A stretch of 64,000 bases of DNA from a virus, in IMG/VR virus record IMGVR_UViG_3300045993_000425, positions 102,844 to 166,843 of that record. One strand, written 5' to 3'. How positions within the stretch are numbered: the stretch's first letter is position 1; each line of letters begins with the position of its first letter. Of this stretch, positions 214-41,654 are shown in pieces. Made by a program: the position numbers and the translations under genes. The notes under the pieces are model-generated. The model was not told the origin of the DNA and did no database searches. It worked only from the letters and a program-made list of their open reading frames with translations.

Positions 214-222
214 GAGAAACCA

Positions 223-966: not shown

Positions 967-967
967 C

Positions 968-1621: not shown

Positions 1622-1647
1622 CCTTCTCACCTCAGACAAGGGAGCCC

Positions 1648-2067
1648 ATGATGGTAGCCAAGAACATCACCCCCTCGCTCGCCTCCATCCTGCGGCTCCT
1701 CCTCGACCAGGGTGGGTCGCGCCGCCTGGTCTACAAGAATGGGACCCGTCTCCAGCTGCGGGGGCTCGCCGGGAAGCTGATTCGGCTCCAGAAGGCTGGG
1801 CTGGTCGAGAACGTCAAGACGGAGAACTACAAGACCTACGAACAAGAGGAGGTCTTGGTCCTCCAGGCTGCCCACTTGGCAAGTGTCGAGGAGTCCAAGA
1901 ACCACAACGCTATGGTCCTAGCCAAGAATGGGGTGGTCGAGAACCCAATGTTCGTCGGTCCCTACTTCGGACCCAAGGTCGGTGACAAGATCTTGGTCGA
2001 GGTGGAGTGGCACCACTTCGTGACTGCCGCCGGTTGCGAGGCTCTCAACGCTTTCGAGCAGAAGTAG
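1648..2067 (+). CDS. hypothetical early protein (139 aa)
   Basis: AAGGGAG RBS; follows an early promoter. Confidence 0.8.
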   Translation: MMVAKNITPSLASILRLLLDQGGSRRLVYKNGTRLQLRGLAGKLIRLQKAGLVENVKTENYKTYEQEEVLVLQAAHLASVEESKNHNAMVLAKNGVVENPMFVGPYFGPKVGDKILVEVEWHHFVTAAGCEALNAFEQK

Positions 2068-2096
2068 TTGACGGCTGGTTCCCGTTCTGATAGTAT
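2068..2096 (+). promoter_or_regulatory. early promoter TTGACG-N17-TAGTAT (with TG extended -10)
   Basis: Matches the family consensus. Confidence 0.85.
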
Positions 2097-2122
2097 CGCT
2101 TTCACCTTCAGGGGAGAACACA

Positions 2123-2992
2123 ATGACCAAGACCAAGCTGACCGATGCCGCCAAGGAGCTCGACCTCACCATCAGCAACTACATCCTCTGCAAGTTCGAG
2201 GAAGAGGGAGCCCCGCTCTACGAGAGCCGCAGCGACACCGAGGTGGGTCAGGCCTACCTGAACCTCGACCTGGAGGACGGGGAGGTTTCGGTGACGACCG
2301 GTCACTACCAGGGTGACGGCATCCCCATGAGGGAGTGGCACGGTGAGATCCAGAGCTGGAAGTTCGGCTCGACCTGCATCTCGGGGGAGCAGCTGGAGAA
2401 GCTGGTCCAGAAGGCCCTCCCGCTGCTCGCCCGCGTCAACGACGGGGGGTACATCGAGTGGGATGGCAGCAACCACGTCGGTCAGCTGAACGAGGATGCC
2501 AGCGATGCAGAGCGGGAACTGGAGGACCTGCTGGAGCAGGTGGAGGGCGACATCGAGGCCTGGCAGGCTGGCGACTGGTTCTGCGAGTACCGCGACTCCC
2601 AGTTCCTCCAGGAGCTCTCCGATGCCGGCAGCGTCGAGGCCCTGATCGAGCAGTTGGAGTCGGAAGTCGACCACGACACCGTCATCGAGGGGCTCTCCTC
2701 CTACATCGAGGAGCGGGTGGAGGAGTTCCTGAAGGCCATCGAGGAGTGGATCGAGGACGACCGCCTGGTCGAGGTCCGCTACCGGCTGACCGGGCAGGAC
2801 CCTGAGATGGACGAGGAGAGCGGAATCTGGGAGGGGGAGTCGAGCGAGCAGGCCCTCTCCAAGCACATCGGGGGCATCATCGACTGGCCCACCGACGAGC
2901 GGCCAGAACTCAAGGCGAAGGTCGTCGGGCTGACCATCGATGTAGACAAGGACGGGGACCTCCTGGCGCACTTCACCGTCGAGACGATCTAG
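2123..2992 (+). CDS. highly acidic early protein (289 aa)
   Basis: GGGGAG RBS; very D/E-rich; strong codon bias. Confidence 0.88.
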   Translation: MTKTKLTDAAKELDLTISNYILCKFEEEGAPLYESRSDTEVGQAYLNLDLEDGEVSVTTGHYQGDGIPMREWHGEIQSWKFGSTCISGEQLEKLVQKALPLLARVNDGGYIEWDGSNHVGQLNEDASDAERELEDLLEQVEGDIEAWQAGDWFCEYRDSQFLQELSDAGSVEALIEQLESEVDHDTVIEGLSSYIEERVEEFLKAIEEWIEDDRLVEVRYRLTGQDPEMDEESGIWEGESSEQALSKHIGGIIDWPTDERPELKAKVVGLTIDVDKDGDLLAHFTVETI

Positions 2993-3238
2993 GTGGCTGC
3001 TTACTTCATCGTACCTGCCCCTGGTAGCTATGGGGGCAGGACGAGGGTGATCTCCAGCCATCACACCCTCAAGGCTGCCGAGAGGGCCTTGGGGTCGCAG
3101 AAGGGGCATGCAGTGCAGTACTGCGTCAGGAGGGGCTGGCTGGTGAAAGGCGATCCCTTCTACCAGGCAGATCTCGCCCGCTTCCCGGTAGTCTACCCCT
3201 ATTCTCCATCGAATGTTGACACGCCCGTCCCGTTTTGA
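2993..3238 (+). CDS. small hypothetical protein (81 aa, GTG start)
   Basis: Fills the gap between two genes on the same strand. Confidence 0.55.
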   Translation: MAAYFIVPAPGSYGGRTRVISSHHTLKAAERALGSQKGHAVQYCVRRGWLVKGDPFYQADLARFPVVYPYSPSNVDTPVPF

Positions 3239-3244
3239 TAGTAT
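3216..3244 (+). promoter_or_regulatory. early promoter TTGACA-N17-TAGTAT
   Basis: Matches the family consensus. Confidence 0.88.
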
Positions 3245-3287
3245 CCCTTCATCAGTCAGCCAGCCGGTACAACCAAAGGAGAACACA

Positions 3288-3908
3288 ATGGCCAAGTTCA
3301 CGAAGGCGTCCGCGAAGAAGTTCATCAAGAACGCCAAGATCACGGTCTACGTCAGCAAGCGTAGCGAGTACAACTGCTCGCACGCATTCATCGTCTTCCA
3401 GGAAGGTGAGGACAAGGGCTGGGGTCTGGCTCGGCAGTTCCGCATCGAGTTCCAGGCCAATAACCTGACCCACGCAGAGGATACGTTCTCAGATGTATCG
3501 CCCTACAAGCTGTTCGACTACGGGAACGTCCCGTTCGGCGGCTTCTACGGTGGGCACCTCGACGTGGGGCACGATCTCTCCTTCGACTCCGACTGGTCTG
3601 AGAAGCTGGTCGTCCCGCAGTTGGTCTGCAGCCTCCTTCAGGAGCAGATCCGCAACTGCAACCTGCACCTCGTCACCGAGTGCCAGCTGGGCGGGATCTG
3701 CGAGGCCATCGAGAAGCTGGGTGGCACCTACACCCTCGTTCGCCGGAACCACAACGACCGGGAGATCCTCGACATCCACTCCGATGAGATCAAGTTCGGA
3801 GTCGGGGCAGAGAAGGTCGCTCAGATCCGGGCCAACCTCGCCGCCAGGGACGCAGAGGTGAGGGCGAAGAGGGCGGCAGAGCTGGGGCTGTCCGAGGAGG
3901 TGGCGTAA
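3288..3908 (+). CDS. hypothetical early protein (206 aa, start revised to MAKFTK)
   Basis: AAGGAGAACACA-ATG leader; the listed 3213 start lies within the promoter. Confidence 0.85.
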   Translation: MAKFTKASAKKFIKNAKITVYVSKRSEYNCSHAFIVFQEGEDKGWGLARQFRIEFQANNLTHAEDTFSDVSPYKLFDYGNVPFGGFYGGHLDVGHDLSFDSDWSEKLVVPQLVCSLLQEQIRNCNLHLVTECQLGGICEAIEKLGGTYTLVRRNHNDREILDIHSDEIKFGVGAEKVAQIRANLAARDAEVRAKRAAELGLSEEVA

Positions 3909-4144
3909 TGGCACTCTCCACCCTCGACCAGCAGGCCCTGAAGGCCCTCCTGGCTGGCAACCAGGAGAAGACCAAAGAACTCTCCAACTACGCTCGCCAG
4001 GTTCGAGGGAACACGCTTCCTTGCCCTGCCTGCGACGACACTGGGCCTCACGACGACAACGGAGAGAACGGATATGATCGGATGCTCTGCTGCCGGAAGT
4101 GCGGCGAGCACTGGGATGTCTACACCGAGGCTGTGTACTGGTAG
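3908..4144 (+). CDS. small zinc-ribbon protein
   Basis: CPAC...CCRKC; TAATG coupling. Confidence 0.75.
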   Translation: MALSTLDQQALKALLAGNQEKTKELSNYARQVRGNTLPCPACDDTGPHDDNGENGYDRMLCCRKCGEHWDVYTEAVYW

Positions 4145-4187
4145 TTTGTACTAGATATCTGACAGGTAGTACCACAAGGAGAACAAC

Positions 4188-4577
4188 GTGAAGAATCTGA
4201 CCAAGGCGCAGCTCATCAAGAAGACCGAACTCACCGACGCTATCCAGAAGGCACAGGAGGTACTGGAGGCGAAGATCGCAACCTTCAACGAGATCAAGGC
4301 CACTGAGTGGTGTGAGGTGGAGGATGCTCTCGCCAAACTCAACGACGAGGTCGAGGAGTTCAACGACTTCCGGCAGGAGATCGTGGACGAGCAGAACGAG
4401 TACTACGAGGGGAAGAGCGAGAGGTGGCAGGAGAGCGATGCGGGGCAGGACTACGACGCCTGGCGGCAGGAGTGGGACAACGAGATCTCCACCGCCAACG
4501 ACATCGACGAGCCCGACGACGCCACGTTCGACGAAACCCCCGCTGACGACATCGAGAACCTTCGCGAGGAGCCGTGA
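4188..4577 (+). CDS. acidic coiled-coil early protein (129 aa)
   Basis: AAGGAG RBS, GTG start, D/E-rich. Confidence 0.85.
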   Translation: MKNLTKAQLIKKTELTDAIQKAQEVLEAKIATFNEIKATEWCEVEDALAKLNDEVEEFNDFRQEIVDEQNEYYEGKSERWQESDAGQDYDAWRQEWDNEISTANDIDEPDDATFDETPADDIENLREEP

Positions 4578-4705
4578 CCACAATACTGACCATCGTCATC
4601 ACCCTGGCCGCCAGCCTTGTCATCGACATCCTGGCGGCTGTTTTCATCCTCCGCAGCCGTAGCCGGTCACAGCAGCTAGTCAACTTGATCAAGAGGTGGC
4701 TATGA
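4574..4705 (+). CDS. small single-pass membrane protein (43 aa; not in the ORF track)
   Basis: GTGA overlap, GAGGAG RBS; MTTILTIVITLAASLVIDILAAVFILRSRSRSQQLVNLIKRWL. Confidence 0.6.
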   Translation: MTTILTIVITLAASLVIDILAAVFILRSRSRSQQLVNLIKRWL

Positions 4706-4754
4706 GCATACAGGAAGACGATAACGCCGCCCGAGCCGCCCTGAAGGAGGAGCC

Positions 4755-4994
4755 GTGAACCAGATCGGATGCGACATGTGCGTGCATGAACTTATCGCCA
4801 TGCAGTTGCGTGAGCGGGTGAAGGTGCTGGAGGCTGACTTCCAGAGCTGCGCGCACGAACTGGAAATCTCAGACGCCGCTGCGGACAGGGCTGTGGCCCG
4901 CGCCTCCCAGCTGGAGGCGGCGCTGGTGTGCCCCTGCGGAGGTGACTACGGCACCCACAGGTGCATCCGCTGTGACTCGGAGGTGGGGCCGTGA
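4755..4994 (+). CDS. small Cys-rich coiled-coil protein
   Basis: AAGGAGG RBS; CDMC and CPC...CIRC. Confidence 0.7.
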   Translation: MNQIGCDMCVHELIAMQLRERVKVLEADFQSCAHELEISDAAADRAVARASQLEAALVCPCGGDYGTHRCIRCDSEVGP

Positions 4995-5028
4995 GCCTGC
5001 TATCAAACACGTCTCTAAGAGGTGGGCT

Positions 5029-5298
5029 ATGACTGACAATAGCGATGAATCTCACAAGCGTTATGAGTTCATAGAACTGCACGCTGAGATCTATCGCCTG
5101 CGCGCAAATTGTGAGAGTCTAGAAGCCATCGTAACCGACCTGCTAGTTGGAGCCAGAGATCTCAAGTCTAGAAACGAGCTGCTGAAAACAGCACTACATG
5201 AGATTGTGGCCATAACCAGCGATGCCGACACAAACCATAGAGTTTTCACAGCCATGACAATTGCCAGAGCTGCTATTGAACAGGAGAATGGGCTATGA
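5029..5298 (+). CDS. hypothetical protein (start revised to MTDNSD)
   Basis: GAGGTG RBS; coiled-coil; ends ARAAIE like many small phage proteins. Confidence 0.7.
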   Translation: MTDNSDESHKRYEFIELHAEIYRLRANCESLEAIVTDLLVGARDLKSRNELLKTALHEIVAITSDADTNHRVFTAMTIARAAIEQENGL

Positions 5299-5423
5299 GC
5301 GACAAGGCTGAGATCACATGCCCATTCTGCCGGTCGAGCGACATAGCAGAACTCTGGATCCTCGACCGGCTCCTTCACCTTCGCTGCCTGGCTTGCTGGG
5401 GTCTTTTCTGCAAGGCTAGCTAG
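5295..5423 (+). CDS. 42-aa zinc-ribbon protein (not in the ORF track)
   Basis: ATGA overlap; MSDKAEITCPFCRSSDIAELWILDRLLHLRCLACWGLFCKAS. Confidence 0.6.
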   Translation: MSDKAEITCPFCRSSDIAELWILDRLLHLRCLACWGLFCKAS

Positions 5424-5434
5424 CAGCAATCTTG

Positions 5435-5463
5435 TTGACAGAAAACCCATCGATATGTTATTC
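5435..5463 (+). promoter_or_regulatory. possible sigma70-type promoter (TTGACA, weak -10)
   Basis: Perfect -35 upstream of the 5502 gene; the -10 deviates from the family. Confidence 0.45.
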
Positions 5464-5501
5464 ATCTATCATGCTGCAACGACGCGGCTAGGGAGATACC
5501 A

Positions 5502-5741
5502 ATGGCGAACGAATTGACGGCAGCAGAGCAGGCATACGAGGCGGCACTCATCGGGTGCAAGCGTGCGGCCTATGCTATGCATCGCGCCGCCGACGAGGCC
5601 ACCCAAGAGCAGTACGCGGCACTCAAGGTGCGCCATGTCATGTCACGGGCCACTCTGGCCGCCGCCTCCGCGTCGATGGGATCGTCGGTGAACCGCGAGG
5701 AGATCGAGTCCCGCGTGGCGACGATGAGGATCTCCCGGTAA
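5502..5741 (+). CDS. hypothetical protein (79 aa)
   Basis: AGGGAG RBS; last + strand gene before convergence with the late genes. Confidence 0.7.
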   Translation: MANELTAAEQAYEAALIGCKRAAYAMHRAADEATQEQYAALKVRHVMSRATLAAASASMGSSVNREEIESRVATMRISR

Positions 5742-20100: not shown

Positions 20101-23100
20101 TTATATAGTTGCCAGGGATGTTGACACCGGTTCCCGCACATGCTTCGCAGTCGTCGACCCTGTCTGCTGCATTGCGGCACTCTCTGCACCTGTCCAGGCC
20201 ACTAAAGCACTGCCCCATGCAATAATCGCAGTCGTCACCGCTGACCTTGACTACACCCTTTTCTTTGCACTCACCACAACCCTCTCCCCCTCCCTCACAG
20301 TCAGGGCACTCCTTGTGCTCATTGCCATCGCCACCACAGAACTCACAGTCCCCACACTTCTGGCCGATATCGGTGATGTACTCGCGAGCCAGTGCTAGTG
20401 TTAGGCCTGTCCTACCAGTCCCATCACATTTCTTGCACTTAGGCACGATTCTGTCGGTGATCCCATCACCACCACAAGTGTCACAGACTTGATGACCGAG
20501 GCCATCTTCCGCCTCCCCATAGTACCCCTTGGAGAAGTTCCAGACATGCGAGGGCTGCTTGTCGATTTCAGCCTGAAGGTGCTCTGCCGAACAGTGTGAG
20601 GGATTCTTGGGGTCCCGTGGCCAGTTCCCAGGAGGCATCTGCTTGTAGTGGATCGAGGGCTTACCCGTAGCCAAGATTTGGTCCCGGCCGAGGCGCAGCT
20701 TGTTGGTCCTGAGCTTGAAGCTGATCTCGCCCTCATTCGGGTTTGAAGGGTCACTGCCTTCAGTCCAGCTCGCATCCGTCTCTGTCTTCTCGAGGTTCTT
20801 GTGCAATTGGTTATCCAGCTGCTGGCTCCCATAGCGGAATAGCTGGTCGCTGAAGTCTCTATGCACCTGAGGGTCCACCATCCAGCTCTTGATTGCCTGG
20901 TTCTCGTCCCTGTCAGCGTCAGTCTTGGCTTCCAGGTTCCGACCCAGCTCAGAGTCCTGGTAGAGGGCGAGGTTGTAGGCATTGACGTGACTGATGATGT
21001 CCTTGTGCCGGTCTAGCCAGTTGAGGGTCCTACCATATGTCTCTTGGTTCTCCCCAGGTAGCCCCACCATGATGTTCGGGATGAGGCTGACACCAGCCTG
21101 CCTGAGCTTCCCTGCCGCCTCCTCGAGTAGCTTCTCTGAGGCTGGCTTCTTGTGAGCCCTCAGGATTGGGTCATTGAAGGTTTCTACCCCTAGCTCGACG
21201 TGCCTGATGCCAGCAGCCTTCAGGAAGTCAGGAGTCATGTTCTTCATGGCAGCTGCTGTCGTCTGGATTACGAACCCCTTGAAGTTAGGGTTCTTCTCCT
21301 TGATCTTCTGGTAGATCTGAGGGAGCAGCTTATGGTTGTCAGCTTGGCCGAACGTCTTGTCATTGAGGTAAATCAGCTTTGTTGGCAGGTGCTTAGAGAT
21401 GGACTCCACCTGCTGCATGACCTCATCGGTGCTCTTCTCCTCTACCTTCTTGGGGACGCAGCAGAATGTGCATTGGTGCCTGCATCCATCCGATAGGGTC
21501 AGCCTGGGGATAGTCGGAGTCCCTTGGAAGTGTCTGTAGTCATGGCCAGGATTGTAGGGAAGTCCGAACTCCTCTACGAAGCTCCGCATGTCAGGATGCA
21601 CCTTGACATTGTTGAGCCCAGCGAAGTGGCTCATGTCGGTGTAGCCCCCTACCGCGATCTTCTGGGTAGGGACAGCCTGGGCTAGCTGCTTGATGAAATC
21701 CTTGTTGACATCCAACGCACTGAAGGCGACATGAGAATACCCAGCGTCCTTGATCATCCTGGCTGCTTCCTCTGGGTTTCGGACTGTCAGATGGTCTGCA
21801 TTCGGGACACTATGGGCCAGATGCGCTTGCCATTGGGGGATTTCCCAGAAATCCTGAGGTCTATCATAGCCTTCCCTGTTTGCGTACAGCTTGTCATAGT
21901 AGGCATCTGAGTCATCCCTCTGACGGTTCCCTTGTAGGAGGTCAGATGAGAACTGCACCATCAGGACTCGATTGGAGTTGCTACCAGATGGATGCTGCCG
22001 TACCCACAGGTTCTGGTCTTGGGTAGGTGATTTGAAGCCCTGCGGCGGCTTTGGCTTCGCTTGGCTTGCCTGCTGGTATGTCTGGTGGGGACTCGTGTGC
22101 TTCGAGCCAGGGACCTCTCCTCCTGCCTCCTGGTGGGCTTCCTTGGGCTGTACCCTTCCAGTAGGTGTACCTAGCGTGACGAGCCCCTTGCTGAGACGCT
22201 CAGGCTCAGGTTCTGCCCATCCGTCCCTATGAGGGCTCTGGTTCAGGTGGCTAGAGAGGACAGCCTTGACTGCCTCCTCGAGCCCTTCCCTTGTGTCCTG
22301 TAGGTTTACCTTGAAGCCTCCACCGCTACCTTCGACACTACCTACCAGCCGTCCACCCTTGCTGACACTAGCGATGTGGTTGGAGTTGATAGCGAGCTTG
22401 TACCCTTCAGCCTCAAGCTGGTGAGGAAGCTGGTGGATGTGCGAAGTGACTACACCCTCGTTCTTCGCTAGCCTTACCCGATATGGACCATACCTGCCAT
22501 CGTAGTCGCTGATAGCTCTCGGATTGATCCACTCTGAGAAGTCATTGTAGGAGCCATCTACTGAGTTGCTCCCATAGTTAGGCTTGGCGGTGTAGACGAG
22601 GTTGTGCTTGTCTGCTAGACGCTCCCTGGTTCTGTGGGCAGAGGTCGAATGCACATCTCCTACCTCCTCCTTGACCCCGAGGTGCCTGACAGCATGCGTC
22701 ATTGCAGCCTCGTATAGAGCCGTTCCTAGCCTATTCTCTTTGCTCCTGTGGTTCGCCTTGACGCAGACATCAATCGTCTTGAGGACCGGCTTGCCATTCT
22801 CCATCTTGATTTCGCCATCCCACATACCTACAGGGACAGAATGGTCCAATGGCTTGACATGAGCTACCAGGCTCTTCAGTTGGGGCTTGTACCTAATGAG
22901 TAGCTGGTACTTGGATCTGGCAGGAATGGGTAGGTGCTCGGAGTAGTCATAGACATGCTCTCCGGTAGGATACTGCCTGACCAGCTTACCCTCTGGTAGT
23001 TCCTCAATTGCCTTCTGTAGCCTTGGTGAGACTGCTTCTCCGTCCTTCTCTCCCTCCTCGGCGGCTTCCTCGTTGCTCCTTACGTTGTCAATGATAGATT

Positions 23101-28769: not shown

Positions 28770-30227
28770 CTAAAGAGCACCAACCAGGTTATCCACGATC
28801 ACGTTCTTGCGGGGCTGGAAGCAGGCCAGCGTCAGGAACCGGAAGTGGGCCTCAGGGGTCGAGAGATCCGAAACCGCGAGCTTGAGGCGGCTGTAGGGGC
28901 TCAGTTCCTTGATGCCCATTGTGTCGGGCTGGAGGAGGAAGCCGGTCACGAAGCCAGGGAGCCGGTTGCCGAGGTCGAGGAACGTGGTCGTCCCACCGCT
29001 CGCCGCTACAACGCGGCCGATGAAGCGGAAGTTGACAGCCTTCGTTCCCGCACCAGCCGCAGAGCGGTAGATGTTGTAGAACTTGGCAGTCACGTTCGTG
29101 ATGATGAGACGCGCCGAGCCGGTCGGGCCAGTGATGGCTACCTTGTGGATACCAGCGGTGTCGCCACCGAGGCCGAACGGAGCCGACTCACCAGCCTCGT
29201 TGCAGGCAGTGACGATGTAGCGGTAGGTGCCGGTCGCGAGCGCACCAGCTACAGTCGCACCGTAGTCAGTCAGCGCACCGGCACCGACAGTCGGAGCCGA
29301 AGGGGAGGTCGTGCGAGCACGCGCCCAGGTCGTCTTGCCCGAGAGGAAGCGGCTGGTTTCGATCTTGACGACGCCACCGTGGACATACTGGCGGGAGAGG
29401 TCCGCACCAGAGACATCGACAGCCGAGCCACCAGCCATCATGCGCTGACCGATTGGAGCGAAAGCCCCGTTGACGGCCCCGATGAGGGTCTTGTTGTAGG
29501 CCGAGGCGACGAGCGGGTCAACGTATAGGTCCTTCGCCTCGCCCATGTTCATCTGGCTACGAACGTGCGCGTCTTCGACTACCGACTGAGTGAGAACGCC
29601 ACCGCCAGTGAGGACGATAGAGAGGTTCGAGCCGAACTCCTCGAGCATCAGGTCATGGCTGTTGAACTGGTAATCCGAGGCGCGAACCTGGATGTCGACA
29701 CCGTGGATGTTCGGGAGAGCCGGAACCGCTAGCGGGTTACCATCGAACACGCCCGCGTTGCTGAAGTCAGCGTAACCCCGGAAGATGTCGTACTCCACAT
29801 CCATTGCGATCTTCTTCGCAGCGTCCTCGGCAGCCCGCTCATCAGCCTTCTTGCCGTCAACCGTTTCGACAAGATTCGCAACGACGGTCGTGCGACGAAG
29901 GTGAGAGTAGAAGGCCATCGGTACGACTACCCGGATGATGCTGCTGGTCTCTTCCTGACCGACTGCGCCTTCAAGCTGCGCCGAGCCGCCGAACTGGCCG
30001 TAGTCCAGCTGGCGATCGAATTGCGCGAGGGTCGACTTGCAGCTCTCGACCTTGATCACCTTCTGGAGCTTGATGATGTCTTCCTTCCAGCATACGTTCT
30101 GAATGACTGGAGAAAGGTCTTCGATCTGTAGCGCGGAGCCCTGAGTCTGCGAACCAGGGAAACCACCCTGCTGACCACCTTCGAGTGCCTTCACTAGGCC
30201 CTGGAGATTACCGATGAGATTTTCCAT
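28770..30227 (-). CDS. major capsid protein (SPO1/Herelleviridae-like)
   Basis: N-terminal LVKA..G...ALQIEDL; FDG..IHGV; YRYIVTACNEAGES and YNIYRS insertion; strong codon bias; follows the scaffold. Confidence 0.9.
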   Translation of the reverse strand: MENLIGNLQGLVKALEGGQQGGFPGSQTQGSALQIEDLSPVIQNVCWKEDIIKLQKVIKVESCKSTLAQFDRQLDYGQFGGSAQLEGAVGQEETSSIIRVVVPMAFYSHLRRTTVVANLVETVDGKKADERAAEDAAKKIAMDVEYDIFRGYADFSNAGVFDGNPLAVPALPNIHGVDIQVRASDYQFNSHDLMLEEFGSNLSIVLTGGGVLTQSVVEDAHVRSQMNMGEAKDLYVDPLVASAYNKTLIGAVNGAFAPIGQRMMAGGSAVDVSGADLSRQYVHGGVVKIETSRFLSGKTTWARARTTSPSAPTVGAGALTDYGATVAGALATGTYRYIVTACNEAGESAPFGLGGDTAGIHKVAITGPTGSARLIITNVTAKFYNIYRSAAGAGTKAVNFRFIGRVVAASGGTTTFLDLGNRLPGFVTGFLLQPDTMGIKELSPYSRLKLAVSDLSTPEAHFRFLTLACFQPRKNVIVDNLVGAL

Positions 30228-33102: not shown

Positions 33103-36100
33103 TTAGGTGGCTGGGAACTGCTGCATGGCTACGATACCTTTTGTAGCAGGGTTGCCAGCGAGGAAGGGAGAGAAGAACAGTTGGGCCCGACTCTGGTCTG
33201 GTAGTTTAGCGATCAACTGCAAGTCTCGCAGCCTACGAATCGCCTCACGCTTGGAAGGAGTCGGAATGCCAAGCCTGGTCATGTGGTTGGCTAGGTCGGT
33301 CGACTTGAGTTTACTGATCCAGTTGATGGTGGATGGGTGAGGAGCATTAAATGCCCAAGCGTCGAAAGGATTAGCACGGCTGTTCTTCACCGCTCTATTA
33401 CCTCCGAAGCCCCAGTAATCAGGGATCCAAGGAGTACCCTTACCCCCGCCGAGCGAAAGACCGTTGTCGATCAGATGGATACCTCCAGGTGTCACCATCC
33501 AGTTACCACTGTGACGGTCGTTGTTGCCCAAGATCATATCCATCAAGGCTAGCCTGTCGAGGAGCCCAGACCTGAAATGTTCAGCTACTTGGTCCCTGTG
33601 TCCATTGCCTCTATGTTCAGCCCCATCGACACGCAACTGACTGGAGTAAGGCTCACCATGTCCTGGGTGCAAGAAAGCTGCTGTCACAGGTACATGATCT
33701 CCTAGCCCGAACACCTTGTGGGCCAGTTCGTAGAATGCGGCCTCTCGATGGGCTGGGGTGTAGTCATCAAAGCTAGCATGACCGAAGTAATCCATAGTCG
33801 GACCAGCTGGCTTGACCCACCCTACATGACCAGCAGTGCTGGCTAGCCACTTGGCGTCCCCACCCTCCCGCTCAGTCAACCCCATCCTCTGCCCTATGAG
33901 GTTCTTTTCACCATCTTCGTCCAGATCGATGCCGTCGATCAATGCAATCTGGCCTGGAGAATGAGCATGGTGAGGGATGCCGTGCCTGGATGCGCTGACG
34001 ACGAGCCCGCTGCCTACCTGCCTGGGGTGCCTGATGACATCGAAGTGCGTACTGCTAGTGATATGCTCTGGCAGGATAGCGAGAGTACCCTTGCTATCCA
34101 TGACGAAAGTCCGACGATTGATACCTAGCGGACTAGTCGGATCACCCAATTTGACGAGATGGGTCTCCTGCCCCATCTTAGGACCAGCAGCCCAGCGAAT
34201 GGCACCCAACTCAATGTTCTTGCCCTTGTACTTGATGACCTTTGGAGCCGCTGGCGGATTGACAGGAGCGGGTTGATTGCCTGGGTCGGTAGCCTTCCTA
34301 AGCTGTGCAGCTAGCCGCTCACCCTTGGATAGCGAATGCGAGAGGATGTGCGGAAGCATAAAAGCGTAATAGGCAAACATGGCTGGGGTGGTTCCAAACT
34401 GAAGTTCGAGCTCATGCATGACATGAGCGCACCGAGCAGGCATTGAGCCGCCATCCGACCAATCTGTTTCGTCCGAATCATTGCTCGCCTTGCTTTCATC
34501 CTTGAGTAGCTTCCGGTCGTATGGGACTCCATACCGATCTAGCATATGCTTGGCAGCCATGAAGAAAACCCGATGGTCTGTACCGGCGTTCTCTGCCTGG
34601 TTCTGCCAGCCCCTCTGAAGTTCATGCGGCTCAATAGAGAGCCAGTGCAACCAGAAGCCAGGGAAGAGGGCCTGCTCTCCGATGTCCTCTCCATACCGGC
34701 GGCGGATCTTCTCTCGAGTGAACTGCACCGCTGGGTGCCGGTCATAGTAGTACTTGTCGATATCCTGCCAGAGAGGCTCGTGCTCTGCATTCAGCATGCT
34801 CGACTTGACTTGCTCGATCTGCGGGTCGCCATTCATGAGGCCAAAGGTGTGCCTGAGGAAGTGCGTGTCAGGTACGACGACATTGCCGCTGCCGATCATG
34901 CCAAGGAGATAGCGGAGAGTCTTGACCGCAAAGCCTGAGGCGACAGGCATACCTGGGTCAAGTCCCTTGTTTCTGGAGCTATTCCTGTCCTTCTCGTTCT
35001 GCGACTTCAGCTCCAGGATGTGTCTGCTGATCTCGCGACCATCTGCACCATGCTGACCCACCATTCCACTCAGAAGCTGGTGGAAGGCGTGGTAGTCCTC
35101 AGTGCGGTCCCATTTTCCATCCGAGGGAGGATTGCGACCCTCGAGGCCTACTGGGCGTAGATACGGCTCCCCCTTCGTCTCACCTTCCTTCGTCCAGGCA
35201 GTAGAGCGACGACTGTCTCGGATGGAGAAGAAATCCTTCATGAACTCAGGCATCATGTGACCAACAGATGCCGCCTTGAACTCCTTGAAGTACTGGTCCT
35301 TGAGGTCCTGGGGAAGCTCAACCGTAGGGTCCCACTTGTGGTTGTGCATCATGTCAATAACGCGAGCAAAAGCAAGCTCTTGGAGCGGGACGGCCGTGTT
35401 ACCAGTGATGAATACCTGACCAGATCGTCTGGCAACGAAGAAGCTGTTCGGCACTACAGGACACCAGACTGGTACTTTTCCGACGAACTCCCGCCTGTGG
35501 CTGCTTTCGAGTCGAGTGAACTTGCGCTGCTGTACACTCACATTGAAGCAGCCTGTCATCTTCGGGATGTTCTTCATCTTGTCAGACTTCGGAGAATACA
35601 TCGACATATCGCGCCAGTAGCTGTATGCCACACCACCAGTTAGCGTAACCAAAGCCTGGAAAGCGTCAGCCTGCTCTCTTCTACCAGTTGTCAGCGTTTT
35701 CCTGGCCTTCCAGTTGGAGTGCTCCTTGTGCTGATTGATACAACCGTCACCCAAGATCATGGACTCCTTGAGTCGTTCCAGAGCGTGACGATCTAGATCA
35801 ACAAGAGTGGCAACTGTAAGCGTTCTATCTGGACACCTAGATATTAGCATGTTGCTTAGGCGAGTCCCAATTCGCCATACATACTTGCCATCCTTCGGGA
35901 AACTGTACCGAGTCCACTCACCATCTCTGCCAGATGGACCAAGCCTAGACAACAGAGCATCGATCCTGGCGCACTTCTCTGGATTGGCTGTTGGGCTCTG
36001 AACCAAGAAGCATCCTTGACGATCCGGCTTGGTCTTGTTCTTGAAATGCCTAATGAATCCATCTGTGACAAACCAACCAAGAAGCTCTGCTTCATCTCCA

Positions 36101-37875
36101 GTAAGAGACGACACGCTAGCTGGTTGATACTCACCGGTTCTGTGAATCTGGTCATTTGCCGTACCAATAGTTGCACTGGTTTTTTCTCTGACGACGCCTC
36201 TTCCAGTAGTGACCAACCATCTATGATCAGGGGTCGTGATGACATTGAACGAGCGACTCTTGAACTCAACAAGAGGCCCTTCGTAGTCAGGGAAGAATCG
36301 GAGATCGGTTGGTTTTTGCCATTCGAGAGCGTTTGTTTCAGCGTTCTTCGTCAAGATCTCATCATCCATCCGAAGATCAAAACCAGGAACCCACCCACGC
36401 TTGGTCAAGGCTTCTGTCTTATCGTCAAGACAGTTGGGACTCATGGTAGAGAAGAGCGCAGATAGAGCCACGACACCATGAGGGAGCCGTCCCTCTCGAG
36501 TCAGCTTGTGGAGGGCGAACCAGTGGTCGAGGGCCCGGTTGTGGATCTCATTGATGCCGGGATTGCTCAAGATCTGCATGTAGTGGTCATCATCCGCTTC
36601 TGGGATGTAGATGCGTAGAGGACTCGGGGTCCACATCAGAACCTTGCCGTCAGGCCCCCTCGGCTTTCCCTTGACCTGCTTCTTCGCGAAGTAGACAACT
36701 CCTGTCCTTTTATCGAAGTAGGTCCTAGTCCTGTCCATCTTGCGACGATGGATGTCATCCTTCTCCGCAGGAGGCAGCGAAGGGGCAGGCTCGCCAGCAG
36801 CTTGGGCATCCTTGATGTCCCTGACGACACCACGATAGGCCTTCTCGGGGTCTGGTGCATTCTTGGGAACCGTGACCGTCACCTTGTGAACGACACCACC
36901 TGGAGGGTCGAGGATGGTGTCTCTGACCGGAGGTGCCTTCTCTGCTTTCGGCTTCTTGACCTTGGGTTGCTCCTCGTCCTTGCGGAGGTGCTTGAGGCGT
37001 CCCTTGACAGATAGGTCGTCTACTAGGTCGCTGAAGTGATCAACGAACTCGTCGGAGGCATCAGGCAGCTGCGATTTGAGGTAAGTCTTGAAGGGACCGT
37101 GCTGGAACTTATCATAGTCCCTCAGAGCAGCCTTGGCTCGGTTCTTCTGCTCGCTGGTCGCCAGGTTCTCTGTCTCGAGCGCAGCTTGACCTGTCTGAGC
37201 TCCCGGCATCCCACCCTGCATCTTCCGAAGACCAGCTAGAGCAGCGACCAGCATCTCAGCGGGTGTCGTCTGGTCGACCCACAATCCCTCACCCAGGCGT
37301 CGAAACAGGGTTCCCTCGCCCTTCGCTGTCTCCTCTAGGAAGGAAACGTCGGTCTTAGCTCCACCTTGCTCTGGGTCGAGGAGGACTCCTGTCACAGCGG
37401 ACTTGTTGGCTGGCTTCATCGTTGCGGCACAGCGACGAGCGATGGTCCTCTTCAGGACATTCCCGTCTCGCTCGAGAGTGCTTCCCTCCACTGACCAGCG
37501 GATCGAGAGTGGCTCACCGGCAGCCGCCTGGTCGCGAATGATAGCAGCGGCAGCCTTGGCGTTCTCATGACCTGAGGCATCGAAGAGCCTGACCACCCCA
37601 TAGACGAAGGGAACCTTGCAGGCCTCCCAGTAGGTCTTCTGGCGGTCGTCATCGCAATCCTTGGCACCGAAAATCTTCTTTGCTTTGATGAACTTACCGA
37701 TGATGCTAGATGGACCCTGGTCGTCACCGGCATGCTCCCAGTTGAGTTCAGCACCATTCTGGAGGCTAGAGATATCTGCCCCCTCAACGAGGAGGATTTC
37801 CCCTGAGCTATCAACGTGCTCTGAGCACACGATGCCGTCGATCACTAGTCCCTTGCTGCCCTGGCCATCGGCCAT
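33103..37875 (-). CDS. prohead protease fused to an intein-containing HhH-glycosylase-like domain and a PI3/4K-like kinase
   Basis: IDGIVCSEHVDSSGE...LNWEH...WSVEG; GFAVKT...VVPDTH; REAAFY...NNDRHSGN...LIDNG. Confidence 0.85.
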   Translation of the reverse strand: MADGQGSKGLVIDGIVCSEHVDSSGEILLVEGADISSLQNGAELNWEHAGDDQGPSSIIGKFIKAKKIFGAKDCDDDRQKTYWEACKVPFVYGVVRLFDASGHENAKAAAAIIRDQAAAGEPLSIRWSVEGSTLERDGNVLKRTIARRCAATMKPANKSAVTGVLLDPEQGGAKTDVSFLEETAKGEGTLFRRLGEGLWVDQTTPAEMLVAALAGLRKMQGGMPGAQTGQAALETENLATSEQKNRAKAALRDYDKFQHGPFKTYLKSQLPDASDEFVDHFSDLVDDLSVKGRLKHLRKDEEQPKVKKPKAEKAPPVRDTILDPPGGVVHKVTVTVPKNAPDPEKAYRGVVRDIKDAQAAGEPAPSLPPAEKDDIHRRKMDRTRTYFDKRTGVVYFAKKQVKGKPRGPDGKVLMWTPSPLRIYIPEADDDHYMQILSNPGINEIHNRALDHWFALHKLTREGRLPHGVVALSALFSTMSPNCLDDKTEALTKRGWVPGFDLRMDDEILTKNAETNALEWQKPTDLRFFPDYEGPLVEFKSRSFNVITTPDHRWLVTTGRGVVREKTSATIGTANDQIHRTGEYQPASVSSLTGDEAELLGWFVTDGFIRHFKNKTKPDRQGCFLVQSPTANPEKCARIDALLSRLGPSGRDGEWTRYSFPKDGKYVWRIGTRLSNMLISRCPDRTLTVATLVDLDRHALERLKESMILGDGCINQHKEHSNWKARKTLTTGRREQADAFQALVTLTGGVAYSYWRDMSMYSPKSDKMKNIPKMTGCFNVSVQQRKFTRLESSHRREFVGKVPVWCPVVPNSFFVARRSGQVFITGNTAVPLQELAFARVIDMMHNHKWDPTVELPQDLKDQYFKEFKAASVGHMMPEFMKDFFSIRDSRRSTAWTKEGETKGEPYLRPVGLEGRNPPSDGKWDRTEDYHAFHQLLSGMVGQHGADGREISRHILELKSQNEKDRNSSRNKGLDPGMPVASGFAVKTLRYLLGMIGSGNVVVPDTHFLRHTFGLMNGDPQIEQVKSSMLNAEHEPLWQDIDKYYYDRHPAVQFTREKIRRRYGEDIGEQALFPGFWLHWLSIEPHELQRGWQNQAENAGTDHRVFFMAAKHMLDRYGVPYDRKLLKDESKASNDSDETDWSDGGSMPARCAHVMHELELQFGTTPAMFAYYAFMLPHILSHSLSKGERLAAQLRKATDPGNQPAPVNPPAAPKVIKYKGKNIELGAIRWAAGPKMGQETHLVKLGDPTSPLGINRRTFVMDSKGTLAILPEHITSSTHFDVIRHPRQVGSGLVVSASRHGIPHHAHSPGQIALIDGIDLDEDGEKNLIGQRMGLTEREGGDAKWLASTAGHVGWVKPAGPTMDYFGHASFDDYTPAHREAAFYELAHKVFGLGDHVPVTAAFLHPGHGEPYSSQLRVDGAEHRGNGHRDQVAEHFRSGLLDRLALMDMILGNNDRHSGNWMVTPGGIHLIDNGLSLGGGKGTPWIPDYWGFGGNRAVKNSRANPFDAWAFNAPHPSTINWISKLKSTDLANHMTRLGIPTPSKREAIRRLRDLQLIAKLPDQSRAQLFFSPFLAGNPATKGIVAMQQFPAT
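35398..36432 (-). mobile_element. intein (345 aa) with a LAGLIDADG-type homing endonuclease
   Basis: SPN|CLDDKTEALT...TPDHR...LGWFVTDG...MILGDG...FITGN|T. Confidence 0.92.
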
Positions 37876-37980: not shown

Positions 37981-38310
37981 ATGACAACAACTCAACTCAC
38001 CGCAGCAGGGCTCAAGGTGGAGTTCACCGAGCACGTTGCCGATTTCGACGTGAACCCATTTCTGGGCATCCTTCGCTTCGGAAAGGTGGTCTCCCAACGC
38101 AAGGACAAGTCGGGAGCCATCAAGGTCGGCTTTGAGGACGGAACCGTCTGTTTCTACTACAAGGGCATCCGCATTCAGGAGGACAAGATGGTTCCCTCTG
38201 GTTACTGGGGGCGGTGGCGTGCCTACACCTACGACACAGAATGCCGGGGCATCTATCACAGCAAACTGAGGGATGTGGTCGAGGAGATCAAGAAGATCGC
38301 AGTGAAATAA
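37981..38310 (+). CDS. hypothetical early protein (109 aa)
   Basis: Lies between two early promoters. Confidence 0.8.
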   Translation: MTTTQLTAAGLKVEFTEHVADFDVNPFLGILRFGKVVSQRKDKSGAIKVGFEDGTVCFYYKGIRIQEDKMVPSGYWGRWRAYTYDTECRGIYHSKLRDVVEEIKKIAVK

Positions 38311-38314
38311 GATG

Positions 38315-38343
38315 TTGACCCCCGCACGGCTTTTTGATAGTAT
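38315..38343 (+). promoter_or_regulatory. early promoter TTGACC-N17-TAGTAT
   Basis: Matches the family consensus. Confidence 0.85.
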
Positions 38344-38383
38344 CTTTTCAGTTCGCAGGGCAGACCAACCGAAGGAGGGCACA

Positions 38384-38854
38384 ATGGCTGACTTCAAGGT
38401 GACCGCAGACGAGGCTCGCGACATCCTGGTGGGCGAAGTGGAAGACCTCTACCTCGATGTCCGCGAGGACCTCTTCTCCAAGGGTCGGTCTTGGGAGGAC
38501 GGGGAGGAGATCGCGGGGTTCCGCTACTCGGTCGTCGCGGAGCAGCGGAACGGCCGCCGGTACACCCACATCATCTCCTTCGCGACCGGGCACGACTGCG
38601 CCACCACCTCCCGCTGCGACGGGGAGTGCAGCATCCCCAAGGAGGAGCAGGGGCTCACCAAGAACCAGGCGAGGGCGAAGGCAGAGTACCTTCTCGCCCG
38701 CATCGAGGTCGCCCGCGCCGCTCGCTGCTGGGACGGTCCTTGGAAGAACAAGAACTGGGTGGAAACCCGCCCCTCCTACGGCTCTGAGGTCTACGCCAAC
38801 GAGGGATGGTCCGCCGAGGAAGCTCGCCTAGAGCAGGAGAGCGAGTTCGACTAG
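38384..38854 (+). CDS. hypothetical early protein (start revised to MADFKV)
   Basis: AAGGAGG RBS. Confidence 0.82.
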   Translation: MADFKVTADEARDILVGEVEDLYLDVREDLFSKGRSWEDGEEIAGFRYSVVAEQRNGRRYTHIISFATGHDCATTSRCDGECSIPKEEQGLTKNQARAKAEYLLARIEVARAARCWDGPWKNKNWVETRPSYGSEVYANEGWSAEEARLEQESEFD

Positions 38855-38868
38855 GCAGCAGGTTGATG

Positions 38869-38897
38869 TTGACAGCCGCGCGCAGCTTTGATAGTAT
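38869..38897 (+). promoter_or_regulatory. early promoter TTGACA-N17-TAGTAT
   Basis: Matches the family consensus. Confidence 0.85.
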
Positions 38898-38930
38898 CTC
38901 TCTTCAACGCAACGAACAAAGGAGAACACA

Positions 38931-40079
38931 ATGGCTGACTCGAAGCAGAAGATGGACGGGCGGCGGGCGACCTACTTCCGAGTGGAGTCGGACGACAAGT
39001 TCAGCGAGATCAAGCTGGTCGTCGACCGGAAGCACCCCCTCTTCGACGGGCGGGCTCTCCTCGCCCCGAACGAGGCTCTGGTGAACTCAATCGCCATCCA
39101 GGGGGTGCTGGAGCCCATCGAGGTCATCGAGGCCCCCCGCGAGCCGGGAAACCCCAAGCGGATCTACCACATCGTCTTCGGGAGGCAGCGTTTCAACGCA
39201 TGGAGGGTCGCCTGCGAGCAGCGCAAGGCAAAGGGGCTCGACAGCCTCTCCCTCCCCTGCCTCGTGTCGCATGGGCAGAGCAACGACGAGAAGGCCCCTC
39301 TGGAGGCGGTGGCGAAAATGGCTGCGGAGAATATCCGCACGGCTGACACGCCTGTCAACATGGCGCACAAAATCGCCGCTTTCCTGAACATCGAGGACGA
39401 CGAGCCCCGCGCCGCTGTCTCGTTCGGACTGACGGTCGCCGCAGTCCGCAACCACCTCGCCCTCTTGAAGCTGCCGGAGGAGATCCAGCAGAAGGTCGAG
39501 ACGGGCGAGATCGGCATCACCGCTGCTCTCATCCTGGGCAAGCTGGACAAGGAGCACCTCAAGGAGACGCTCGCGACCATCGAGCCATCGGTTCCTTGGG
39601 AGAACAGGGAGATCAAGGTCGCCAACCCGGCAGCCCCCACTCCGACCAAACTCAGCATCGCGGACGCCCACAAGGCTCTGCGGGCCTCCAAGGGCAAGAA
39701 GGAGAAGCCGCTCGGTCCCGCTCGCCGCGATGTCGAGAAGGTCCTCGACACCGTCATCGGGGCTCAGGACAACGAGTTCAACCTCGGTGTCCGAGCCGCC
39801 CTCCGCTACCTGACCGGCGAACTCCCCAGCGAGCGGCTGCTGGCGATGGTCAACGAGTCCCGGCAGGAGACGAAGTCCCGGCAGGAGACGAAGGCCTTCG
39901 AGGTCGGTCAGAAGGTTCGTCTCTCTCGCGAGTTCTTGGTGAAGAGCGGGCGGCAGCCCAGCCCCACCGTCTGGGAGGTCGTCTCAAGCCCTGCCTCGGG
40001 TCGGGTCGAGGTTCAGGAGGTGGGCACCGACAAGGTGACCCACCTGCCCATCGCCAACCTCGAGGCTGTCGCGTCATGA
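38931..40079 (+). CDS. ParB-like protein (ParB N-domain + HTH)
   Basis: LVNSIAIQGVLEPI...VFGRQRF.A...AEN.R...HTH...LLKLPEEIQQKV..GEI. Confidence 0.85.
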   Translation: MADSKQKMDGRRATYFRVESDDKFSEIKLVVDRKHPLFDGRALLAPNEALVNSIAIQGVLEPIEVIEAPREPGNPKRIYHIVFGRQRFNAWRVACEQRKAKGLDSLSLPCLVSHGQSNDEKAPLEAVAKMAAENIRTADTPVNMAHKIAAFLNIEDDEPRAAVSFGLTVAAVRNHLALLKLPEEIQQKVETGEIGITAALILGKLDKEHLKETLATIEPSVPWENREIKVANPAAPTPTKLSIADAHKALRASKGKKEKPLGPARRDVEKVLDTVIGAQDNEFNLGVRAALRYLTGELPSERLLAMVNESRQETKSRQETKAFEVGQKVRLSREFLVKSGRQPSPTVWEVVSSPASGRVEVQEVGTDKVTHLPIANLEAVAS

Positions 40080-40324
40080 TTCAGTTCAAGACGCTCGACC
40101 GCCCCGGTCAGTGCCAAGGCTGCGGGGCACACACCCAGGAGGACCTAGATCCAGACCTCCTGACGAAGAAGCTGTGCCTCCTGGGTCTGGGAGGCATCAA
40201 CAACGTCCCTGGCCGCCTCATCATCCTATGCGGAAGCTGCTGCACGCAGTTCAGGGCACATCTGTGGAAGTGGATCAAGTCTGAGGGGCAGGACATGATG
40301 TCGGTGGGTCTCCACAAGAAGTAG
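40076..40324 (+). CDS. small zinc-finger protein (MIQFKTL...)
   Basis: ATGA overlap; CQGC...CGSC. Confidence 0.65.
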   Translation: MIQFKTLDRPGQCQGCGAHTQEDLDPDLLTKKLCLLGLGGINNVPGRLIILCGSCCTQFRAHLWKWIKSEGQDMMSVGLHKK

Positions 40325-40359
40325 GACAAGACAGCCACTCTGTGGTAGAAGGAGGCGAG

Positions 40360-41346
40360 ATGGACACACTACTGTACTCTGGCGAGCCTCCTTGGCACAA
40401 CCTTGGATTCCGACTCGACCGGCCTATGGCTGTCGAAGAAGCCTTCCGCCTTACCCTCGACTGGAGGGTGATCGAGACTCCACTCTACTACGCCAACCCT
40501 GTGACAGGGGAGGCAGTCAAGGTCCACACCAGCAAGGCTCTGGTGCGTAGCAGCAACGGGAAGGACCTGGCGGTCGTCGGAGCCAGCTATTCGGTATTTC
40601 AGAACCAGGAGCATTGCAGCTTCCTCCAGCACCTTTTGGGTCCTGATGGGACGGTCGAGGAGGCTGGTGAACTAGCTGGAGGCAAGAAGATCTGGCTTCT
40701 GTGTCGGCTCAAGGGGCAGATCGAGGTCGGATCTGAGAGGCTCGACAAGTACGTCCTGAGCGTAACCAGCCACGATGGGTCGATGTCTCACTCGATCATC
40801 CCTCTGGTAATGCGGAGATCCTCCCAGAGTTGCTGGGAAGCCAACTTGTCCGGTCAACCTGATGTCAAAATCAGGCACACTAGCAGGATGGACCAGATGG
40901 TCATCGAGGCTGCGAAGACAGCCAGGCTGACCGACCAGCGATTCCAGCAGGTGGAAGCCGAATGCCACAAGCTGGCAGGAGACAGGTTCTCTACCAGCCA
41001 GATGGCGGAAATAGCTGACCGGCTGTTCCCTGAGACTCCTCTAATGAAGTCGGGCAAGATGGACCACCAGAATCTGCACATCTCTGACAGGAACCAGGCG
41101 GCCAGGGACGCTCTCCTGCACCTGTACAAGGATGGGCATGGGCAGCACCACCACCCAGGCAGCCGGTGGGCAGCTCTAGGAGCAGTGACTGAATACGCCT
41201 GCCACCACAGGCCTACCAGGGTAGCGAACGGAAGTCGGGACGAGAGAGCGGTACGAGACACAAGGCTGCAATCAGTCTGGTTCGGAGCCAGCAGGAAGCT
41301 AATCAGGAAGGCGCGAGAGCTAATCCAACCCAAGAGGACACCATGA
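40360..41346 (+). CDS. DUF932 / TIGR03299-like phage-plasmid protein
   Basis: PWHNLG, YSVFQN, AGELAGGKKIW, SHDGS, RHT, W.A...VTEY..H; AAGGAGG RBS. Confidence 0.85.
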   Translation: MDTLLYSGEPPWHNLGFRLDRPMAVEEAFRLTLDWRVIETPLYYANPVTGEAVKVHTSKALVRSSNGKDLAVVGASYSVFQNQEHCSFLQHLLGPDGTVEEAGELAGGKKIWLLCRLKGQIEVGSERLDKYVLSVTSHDGSMSHSIIPLVMRRSSQSCWEANLSGQPDVKIRHTSRMDQMVIEAAKTARLTDQRFQQVEAECHKLAGDRFSTSQMAEIADRLFPETPLMKSGKMDHQNLHISDRNQAARDALLHLYKDGHGQHHHPGSRWAALGAVTEYACHHRPTRVANGSRDERAVRDTRLQSVWFGASRKLIRKARELIQPKRTP

Positions 41347-41654
41347 AAACAGGCACAGGCACCGTGAGGCGATTCGTCGGAGACAATTCTGCTACCTTCA
41401 TCGGCATCGAGAGGGGGATCCAGGGTCCTCTGGGGGCGATGGATGTCCAGCCCAGCCTGAGAGGCAACGAGCACTACTGGTCGAGGGGATCCGCTTTCAT
41501 GCCTGCCCTTCCTGCCCTGGTAGACGACCTCCTCAAGCGGTACGGCACCAGAGAGGGTGACTACACCGACATGCAAGCCATCATCGGGCAGCCATGTCGT
41601 TTTGAGACGACAGAGTGCGGCCTACTAACCAGCCTGACTGTACTGGTGAACTAA
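41343..41654 (+). CDS. hypothetical protein (103 aa)
   Basis: GAGGA RBS, coupled to the upstream gene. Confidence 0.7.
   Translation: MKTGTGTVRRFVGDNSATFIGIERGIQGPLGAMDVQPSLRGNEHYWSRGSAFMPALPALVDDLLKRYGTREGDYTDMQAIIGQPCRFETTECGLLTSLTVLVN

Follow-up and report, generated by a model that had tools for sequence, protein, structure and literature searches.

We report that an uncultured tailed phage encodes, as one segment of a giant open reading frame (ORF), what its sequence and a predicted structure indicate is an intact, two-domain, class-B-like radical S-adenosylmethionine (SAM) enzyme without an auxiliary cluster. The ORF, designated P0001, lies in a 64,000-nucleotide stretch of IMG/VR virus record IMGVR_UViG_3300045993_000425 (positions 102,844 to 166,843). 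This stretch, referred to here as the window, is the terminal 64 kb of the 166,843-bp record, which CheckV rates as complete. Judged from database searches, the enzyme family is overwhelmingly viral and its viral members come so far from uncultured phages only, and phages appear to have inserted it repeatedly, as one bead that includes a short leader, into giant polyvalent proteins. The positions of all features are collected in Table 1.

The radical SAM module of P0001

The enzyme spans 394 amino acids (aa) of P0001 (residues 1197 to 1590; positions 20810 to 21991, minus strand) and matched the Pfam family Radical_SAM (PF04055) with 72.1 bits (E = 7.9e-20), the curated cutoff being 29.5 bits. 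A preliminary description of the window, made from its letters, had placed a radical SAM enzyme at 20810 to 21990, preceded by a Rossmann-like segment of the class B type. The module is located there, although the frame-correct start is 21991, and the Pfam match, an AlphaFold model, and structural matches agree on the type of enzyme. All the motifs quoted in that description were found on the minus strand in the frame of P0001: CRHQCTFC, at exactly the position given, ELGVETF, IMVGLPGE, VAFSAL, and IAVGG. The AlphaFold (AF2) model of the excised module gives the predicted partial triosephosphate isomerase (TIM) barrel, ahead of which stands a five-stranded Rossmann domain (module residues 9 to 141), with a predicted local distance difference test (pLDDT) score of 95.7. 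This model was built on an alignment (A1) with 62 stand-alone homologs and replaced a poor single-sequence model (pLDDT of 53).

The residues expected of a functional enzyme are all in place. Between the two junctions described below (residues 1132 to 1598), no cysteine occurs outside CRHQCTFCC, which has four. The three that belong to the cluster motif are conserved in 100% of 121 embedded and 66 stand-alone homologs, and every residue that is conserved at ≥95% across these 187 sequences is present in the P0001 copy. The conserved motifs of the core are YLNDKTFGQ, GFVIQTT, VELGVETFND...K, and IPNIMVGLPGE, and the invariant residues of the Rossmann domain are Q13, E50, P52, W54, S91, and G115-G116 (numbered in the 394-aa piece, with residue 1 being P0001 residue 1197). 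DKTFGQ, GF.IQTT, E.G.E, N306/E314, Ser91, and Gly115 are 96 to 100% conserved in the embedded and stand-alone forms alike. Because the catalytic and invariant residues are conserved to this extent and are all intact in P0001, members of the family are, by their conservation pattern, working enzymes rather than relics.

Searches against characterized enzymes placed the module near the class B radical SAM enzymes. The NCBIfam matches were subthreshold and covered the core only (best, ≤58.8 bits against cutoffs of 180 to 700 bits); they were to class B families (PhpK, HpnJ, the C-methyltransferases of ribosomally synthesized and posttranslationally modified peptides [RiPPs], and a ladderane B12 enzyme) and to MiaB/RimO, and no curated class B subfamily (PhpK, HpnJ, BchE, RiPP C-methyltransferases, and others) was matched above its cutoff. 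Sequence searches of the PDB gave matches confined to the core that never reached the N-terminal domain, and BFVD returned nothing beyond viral class-B-like proteins at 12 to 15% identity. QCMT, CysS, OxsB, TsrM, and TokK were matched over the full length, and AprD4 was the tied best structural match. A methylthiotransferase of the MiaB/RimO type was considered and rejected, since the cysteines of CRHQCTFCC are the only ones present, which leaves none for an auxiliary cluster in the N-terminal domain, and since no TRAM domain was matched.

The unit shared among giant proteins is slightly larger than the enzyme. P0001 residues ~1151 to 1600 are common to 119 to 126 of 126 giant proteins, whereas the rest of P0001 is common to ≤23 of them (BLAST coverage). 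Since the module is the sole part common to these 126 proteins and the stand-alone genes end almost alike, the preliminary description was right to treat it as a self-contained unit. The same coverage analysis revealed no universal partner domain beyond the cassette, and Pfam searches of eight giant proteins found no HhH-glycosylase beside the module. The shared block begins ~40 residues ahead of the start of the stand-alone enzyme. In this leader, a Tyr at position -28 is found in 94% and an Asn at position -6 in 98% of the embedded copies; the leader is missing from the ~383-aa stand-alone genes; a single stand-alone gene, of 469 aa, carries it. Candidate roles for the leader are those of a docking strand, a packaging signal, or a pseudosubstrate.

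Distribution of the module family

When 1.84 billion cluster representatives were scanned in full with HMMER, 315 proteins matched at E < 1e-30. In nearly all of the best 150 of these 315, query residues 4 to 393 were matched, at varying positions in proteins of 1,000 to 5,600 aa, while a length-restricted search retrieved many stand-alone proteins of ~380 to 400 aa that were 35 to 48% identical. When the DNA of 83 loci was fetched, the module was embedded at 54 loci, in open frames of ≥800 aa, the longest of them ≥5,277 aa, and lay in a closed gene of ≤520 aa at 26. In a tree of 212 modules, of which 187 rows are labeled embedded or stand-alone, only 5 switches between these states are required. 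The preliminary description had called an iron-sulfur (Fe-S) enzyme inside a head-cargo polyprotein very unusual; this is true of the searchable literature, in which we found no paper that describes a radical SAM domain in a giant or virion protein of a phage, but not of sequence space, where the fusion is common.

Cellular members are few. Against 77 IMG/VR loci stand 8 true cellular matches (one genome each from 185,579 species), most of which are contigs of metagenome-assembled genomes, one from a member of the Polyangiaceae among them. A further 400 Alphaproteobacteria genomes contained no family member (0/400). Among 50,697 cultured-phage records, blastn with the locus gave no match and tblastn with the module gave one distant match in a Staphylococcus phage (22% identity, 45% coverage), so no family member was found there.

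Two cultured Alphaproteobacteria, Aliirhizobium smilacinae PTYR-5 and Halovulum marinum 2CG4, carry true members, which are 30 to 33% identical to the P0001 copy and share nearly all of the family-invariant residues. In both neighborhoods (L013:5941-10869 and L016:3730-6663), the gene adjoins genes for a class II aldolase and a PNP_UDP_1 phosphorylase, and the Aliirhizobium gene is also near genes for an aldehyde dehydrogenase, a cobalamin adenosyltransferase, and an amino-acid-type ABC transporter. A salvage pathway has been described for 5'-deoxyadenosine, the by-product of radical SAM enzymes (PMC6079011). The aldolase and phosphorylase neighborhood resembles this pathway and, by analogy, fits a high-turnover, possibly B12-linked enzyme. 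No salvage-type aldolase or phosphorylase genes were found alongside the viral copies.

The stand-alone viral homologs lie among runs of small early-type ORFs or by genes for DNA polymerase, dCMP deaminase, or RtcB. These early-type neighbors suggest that the radical SAM activity is wanted early in infection. On a related phage contig of ~178 kb with a 469-aa stand-alone homolog, we also observed a second, different radical SAM gene (418 aa; L003:4518-5774), with an RtcB ligase gene a few kilobases away.

Late-gene position, junction motifs, and proposed role

The major capsid protein (MCP) of the phage shares 51% identity with its counterpart in Myxococcus phage Mx1, which has a 169.6-kb genome and a contractile tail (PMC10720576). 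The gene order is likewise that of Mx1: helicase, terminase, portal, a long "putative prohead protease," nucleotide cyclase, a scaffold-like gene, MCP, a 288-aa tail-fiber-like protein, and then the giant proteins. Judged by these likenesses, the phage carrying P0001 is an uncultured Mx1-like myovirus. The P0001 locus lies directly downstream of the MCP, transglycosylase, and tail-fiber-like genes, which is the same site as in Mx1 and in two related contigs (L020 and L022). At this site, Mx1 encodes a NUDIX protein of 1,479 aa and a kinase but lacks a radical SAM domain, whereas the present phage has four giant proteins. The Mx1 genome paper contains no proteomics (PMC10720576). The record derives from a wetland metagenome, and a partial match was found in one pond sample. 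These wetland and pond metagenomes are the DNA data sets with the locus, no RNA data sets are listed with it, and, given such samples, a low-oxygen source habitat is plausible.

From its N-terminal end, P0001 consists of a ParB-like N terminus, the first copy of a triplicated Zn-finger module, a domain of unknown type (X1), a GNAT domain, a small domain of ~90 aa (X2), the radical SAM cassette, and Zn-finger module copies 2 and 3. L020 and L022 have the same modules in other orders, and both show the order X2, radical SAM, NUDIX; by tblastn, X2 precedes the radical SAM module at L020:8909-9178 and L022:9557-9793. Thus, X2 consistently precedes the cassette in the Mx1-like clade while other modules are shuffled, and it may be a functional partner of the enzyme. 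The upstream flanks of 12 of 16 relatives share the terminal pattern ...GL..A...VL..H......DGW. An adjacent giant protein of the same phage contains GNAT, ParB, and NUDIX domains, and close relatives carry ART-PolyVal (PF18760), NUDIX, GNAT, and ParB_N; our search of this genome found no ART-PolyVal. The genome also contains no thymidylate-synthase-like gene, which would point to DNA hypermodification, whereas Mx1 has one.

The preliminary description had interpreted P0001 as a putative virion polyprotein with the module bounded by LSK↓G and LEK↓T (the arrow marks the supposed cut). Two parts of this interpretation are borne out, in that the module is one of several in a giant multienzyme protein encoded beside head genes and in that the junction motif is statistically real. 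Both border motifs exist, but they lie outside the coordinates that had been given for the module. At the site equivalent to LSK↓G, close relatives have a hydrophobic-x-K↓small sequence 36 to 66 residues before the domain. A strict form of the motif, [LIVMFA]-x-K-[AST]-E, occurs four times in P0001 (K130, K703, K1598, and K2214) against an expectation of 0.65, and all four lie at module borders that were set independently by internal repeats. Of the 15 closest relatives that could be evaluated, 13 have it again 5 to 26 residues past the cassette, despite differing linkers and next domains, and the remaining 2 have ELSK↓TS there. At the density that the motif has in the relatives' proteins (61 in 24,609 residues), chance would place it there in about one case. 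The 293-aa scaffold-like protein contains two strict motifs (K182 and K233) against 0.19 expected, and the cyclase contains one; there is none in the portal, terminase, methylase, and helicase (3,800 aa of nonhead proteins). The N terminus of the MCP carries the looser form ...LVK↓AL, conserved as LRK↓AM in Mx1. Taken together, the K-junction motif is real by these counts, its occurrences in the scaffold-like protein and MCP fit a Lys-specific prohead protease, and the junctions are consistent with cutting by such an enzyme.

A second, more distant clade (P0033, P0037, P0044, P0048, P0051, P0055, P0060, P0062, and P0074) has a single D[ML]xELW tail ~20 aa past the cassette. This sequence was rejected as a general junction motif because it occurs once per protein and is thus a module tail. 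Several giant proteins of the clade have repeated Q[FY]xP motifs, possibly the clade's own junction signature, and three of them, scanned with Pfam, have DUF7178 at the C terminus.

We regard it as moderately probable that the intact class-B-like cassette serves an early radical reaction through a late-made, packaged, cleaved, and ejected protein. P0001 would be made late in infection and loaded into the head, where a prohead protease would probably cut it into modules at hydrophobic-x-K↓[A/S/T]-E junctions. Ejection would carry the modules out along with the DNA. After loading and reduction of its cluster, the enzyme would use SAM to carry out radical chemistry on a target of host or phage origin at the onset of infection. 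We favor this sequence of late synthesis, head loading, cutting, and ejection because the stand-alone genes suggest an early need; a phage with the enzyme embedded in a late polyvalent protein would satisfy that need by delivering it ready-made with the DNA. Several observations pull in the other direction. The oxygen-labile [4Fe-4S] cluster would have to survive in, or be rebuilt after, an extracellular particle; the sole cultured relative, Mx1, infects an aerobe; the stand-alone homologs indicate that the enzyme need not be virion borne; and the junction motif was defined post hoc, after inspection of the data. Furthermore, the only protease label is the "putative prohead protease" annotation of the Mx1 homolog of ORF 33103-37875, and searches of this ORF by Pfam, PHROGs, and PDB sequence revealed no protease family. 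Because no protease family was recognized and the motif was chosen after inspection, we treat cleavage as a prediction. As for a cobalamin-assisted reaction, the B12-binding family PF02310 gave no match in the P0001 copy, and AprD4, a top structural match, does not bind cobalamin (PMC12931638).

The weak point on cleavage leaves room for a giant protein that is packaged and ejected whole, like N4 virion RNA polymerase (vRNAP) or P1 DarB, with the K motifs as mere linker signatures copied along with the modules. Some polyvalent proteins are indeed packaged unprocessed (N4 vRNAP, as cited in PMC5512222), and in addition to the missing protease family, the looser form of the motif is barely enriched in P0001 (20 observed versus 15 expected). 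Even so, we judge an uncut protein to be unlikely, given that the strict motif is kept just past the cassette while the intervening sequence and next domain differ and that it also appears in the scaffold-like protein and, loosely, at the MCP N terminus while being absent from the nonhead proteins. Less likely still is that the enzyme acts late in the producing cell, for example, on phage DNA or virion parts before or during assembly, and owes its place in the giant protein to coexpression. The late-operon position would accord with such a role, and activity in a reducing cytoplasm would be simpler for an oxygen-labile Fe-S cluster. Yet the stand-alone homologs lie among early-type rather than structural genes, the module has neither the SPASM or auxiliary cluster typical of protein cross-linkers nor any cysteine beyond CxxxCxxCC, and the partner modules (ParB, GNAT, NUDIX, and ART-PolyVal) form the classical early counterdefense set (PMC5512222). 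That the domain is a decayed, noncatalytic remnant serving as structural filler is extremely improbable, since the catalytic and family-invariant residues are intact in P0001 and remain 96 to 100% conserved in 121 embedded copies that are only ~45 to 70% identical overall.

Under the preferred scenario of an injected enzyme, the reaction itself can be narrowed only in part. Of 63 family members, 11 matched PF02310 (best E, 5.5e-5), and among the named clusters of the ESM Atlas, the nearest is a family of bacterial B12-binding radical SAM proteins. The S-A-L at the end of strand 3 and the GG at the end of strand 4 resemble the SxL...GG part of the classical cobalamin-binding fingerprint, and the cobalamin adenosyltransferase gene beside the Aliirhizobium member points, indirectly, the same way. 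We lean slightly toward a cobalamin-assisted reaction, such as methylation of an unactivated carbon. It is nearly as credible that the enzyme is cobalamin independent, similar to AprD4 or ArsL, with a Rossmann domain that binds the substrate and a nonmethylating radical reaction, such as a dehydration, a rearrangement, or a 3-amino-3-carboxypropyl transfer; the lack of a PF02310 match in P0001 and the likeness to AprD4 would then find a ready explanation.

Two further genes of the window and its strand organization deserve mention. The portal protein is 1,595 aa long versus 686 aa in Mx1; its residues 12 to 433 and 1320 to 1458 align to contiguous Mx1 portal sequence, so that ~890 aa are inserted in midprotein, and the insert may be an intein or an inserted cargo domain. 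The DNA methyltransferase ORF (1,071 aa) has methylase-family matches at both ends and, in its middle part, matches to PHROG families annotated as primase and anaerobic ribonucleotide reductase, a pattern that suggests an intein insertion. Two islands are transcribed from the strand opposite to the late region, with a G+C content of 0.59 to 0.63 versus ~0.55 in the late region.

TABLE 1 Positions of P0001, its radical SAM module, and other features of the window
Feature	Position	Strand	Remark
P0001, 2,797 aa	17186..25579	-	Giant ORF carrying the radical SAM module
X2, ~90 aa	22187..22459	-	Directly upstream of the radical SAM cassette
Upstream junction L-S-K↓G (residues 1129-1132)	22184..22195	-	~65 residues upstream of the conserved domain
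Radical SAM cassette, leader plus enzyme, 438 aa (residues 1155-1592)	20804..22117	-	Delimited by homology
Leader PG..VT.P..TY.EA ... N.WVR	21992..22117	-	Embedded-form leader, all clades
N-terminal Rossmann-type (B12-binding-like) domain, five strands	21512..21991	-	No cysteine
S-A-L, end of strand 3	21713..21721	-	Ser conserved in 100%
GG, end of strand 4	21644..21649	-	Conserved in 98 to 100%
Radical SAM core, partial TIM barrel	20957..21511	-	PF04055, alignments to RimO and AprD4, invariant residues
CxxxCxxC [4Fe-4S] motif, CRHQCTFC	21461..21484	-	100% conserved in 187 homologs
C-terminal helical part	20810..20956	-	D-x-N/D-E-N ... K-S conserved; alignment, model
Downstream junction L-E-K↓T-E (residues 1596-1600)	20780..20794	-	6 residues past the conserved domain
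MCP	28770..30227	-	Looser junction motif at N terminus
Scaffold-like protein, 293 aa	30276..31157	-	Two strict junction motifs
Homolog of Mx1 "putative prohead protease"	33103..37875		
Portal, 1,595 aa	46354..51141	-	Insert of ~890 aa relative to Mx1
DNA methyltransferase ORF, 1,071 aa	55537..58752	-	Possible intein
Opposite-strand island	1..5700	+	
Opposite-strand island	38000..43800	+	

Significance and comparison with known systems

Radical SAM enzymes perform chemically difficult modifications of DNA, RNA, proteins, and metabolites, and polyvalent and ejected phage proteins are a phage's first weapons against host defenses. None of the three ingredients (radical SAM enzymes, polyvalent proteins, and protease-processed head cargo) is new by itself. 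What is new, as far as we have searched, is a virus-specific class-B-like radical SAM family, its reuse as a bead in giant late proteins, and the Lys-type junction motif. It is a tentative and rather doubtful generalization that many tailed-phage lineages package a virus-specific B12-type radical SAM enzyme as protease-released cargo and inject it for early radical chemistry. If true, this would be the first Fe-S radical enzyme known as a virion-delivered effector and would add a functional class to the B12-dependent radical SAM enzymes, and its modification of a host or phage macromolecule or of a defense-related nucleotide would be among the first events of infection.

A cassette that is nearly exclusive to viruses and is reinserted in giant late proteins points to an unrecognized, probably widespread step of early infection or counterdefense. 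The family also offers radical SAM enzymology a large untouched clade, including the question of B12 use; a natural test case for the travel of an oxygen-labile metalloenzyme inside a virus particle; and a candidate Lys-specific polyprotein processing system in a tailed-phage head. Because two cultured bacteria carry cellular members, there is a tractable way into the family.

Among known enzymes, those of class B structural class I (QCMT/MgmA [9CCB], CysS [9N1D], OxsB [5UL3/4], TsrM [6WTE/F], and TokK [7KDX/Y]) are 12 to 16% identical to the module, which is shorter (390 aa) and has no counterpart of the additional C-terminal domain found in TokK, CysS, and OxsB. The module family also differs from known class B enzymes in being almost entirely viral, and a review of class B never mentions phages (PMC12931638). 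AprD4 (6FD2), a radical SAM 1,2-diol dehydratase with an aminoglycoside substrate (PMC12931638), is 13% identical to the module; unlike AprD4, the module has no genomic link to aminoglycoside pathways. MiaB, RimO, and MtaB have three N-domain cysteines that hold an auxiliary cluster, as well as a TRAM domain, and the module has neither.

By its predicted architecture, P0001 belongs to the polyvalent protein class of Iyer et al. 2017 (PMC5512222), whose text includes no radical SAM domain (0 occurrences of "radical"). Like those proteins, it is a giant late-gene product that strings together unrelated enzyme domains, including the ParB and GNAT hubs (with ART-PolyVal and NUDIX in relatives), and its modules are extensively shuffled between related phages. 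The metallopeptidase and MuF hubs of the class were not seen here; a prohead-protease-like junction motif is found instead.

The closest precedents for the proposed processing are the T4 internal proteins and the cargo of phiKZ and SPN3US, the head proteins of the latter two being cut after A-x-E by gp245 (PMC10052503). As in these phages, the gene of the proposed cargo stands among head genes, and a three-residue motif with a charged last residue is found at the predicted sites, in a scaffold-like protein, and near the MCP N terminus. The motif has the form of the x-E↓ sites of the T4 and phiKZ/SPN3US prohead proteases (PMC10052503). The P1 residue, however, would be Lys rather than Glu, and the sites would part many enzymes of one chain instead of removing one N-terminal propeptide.

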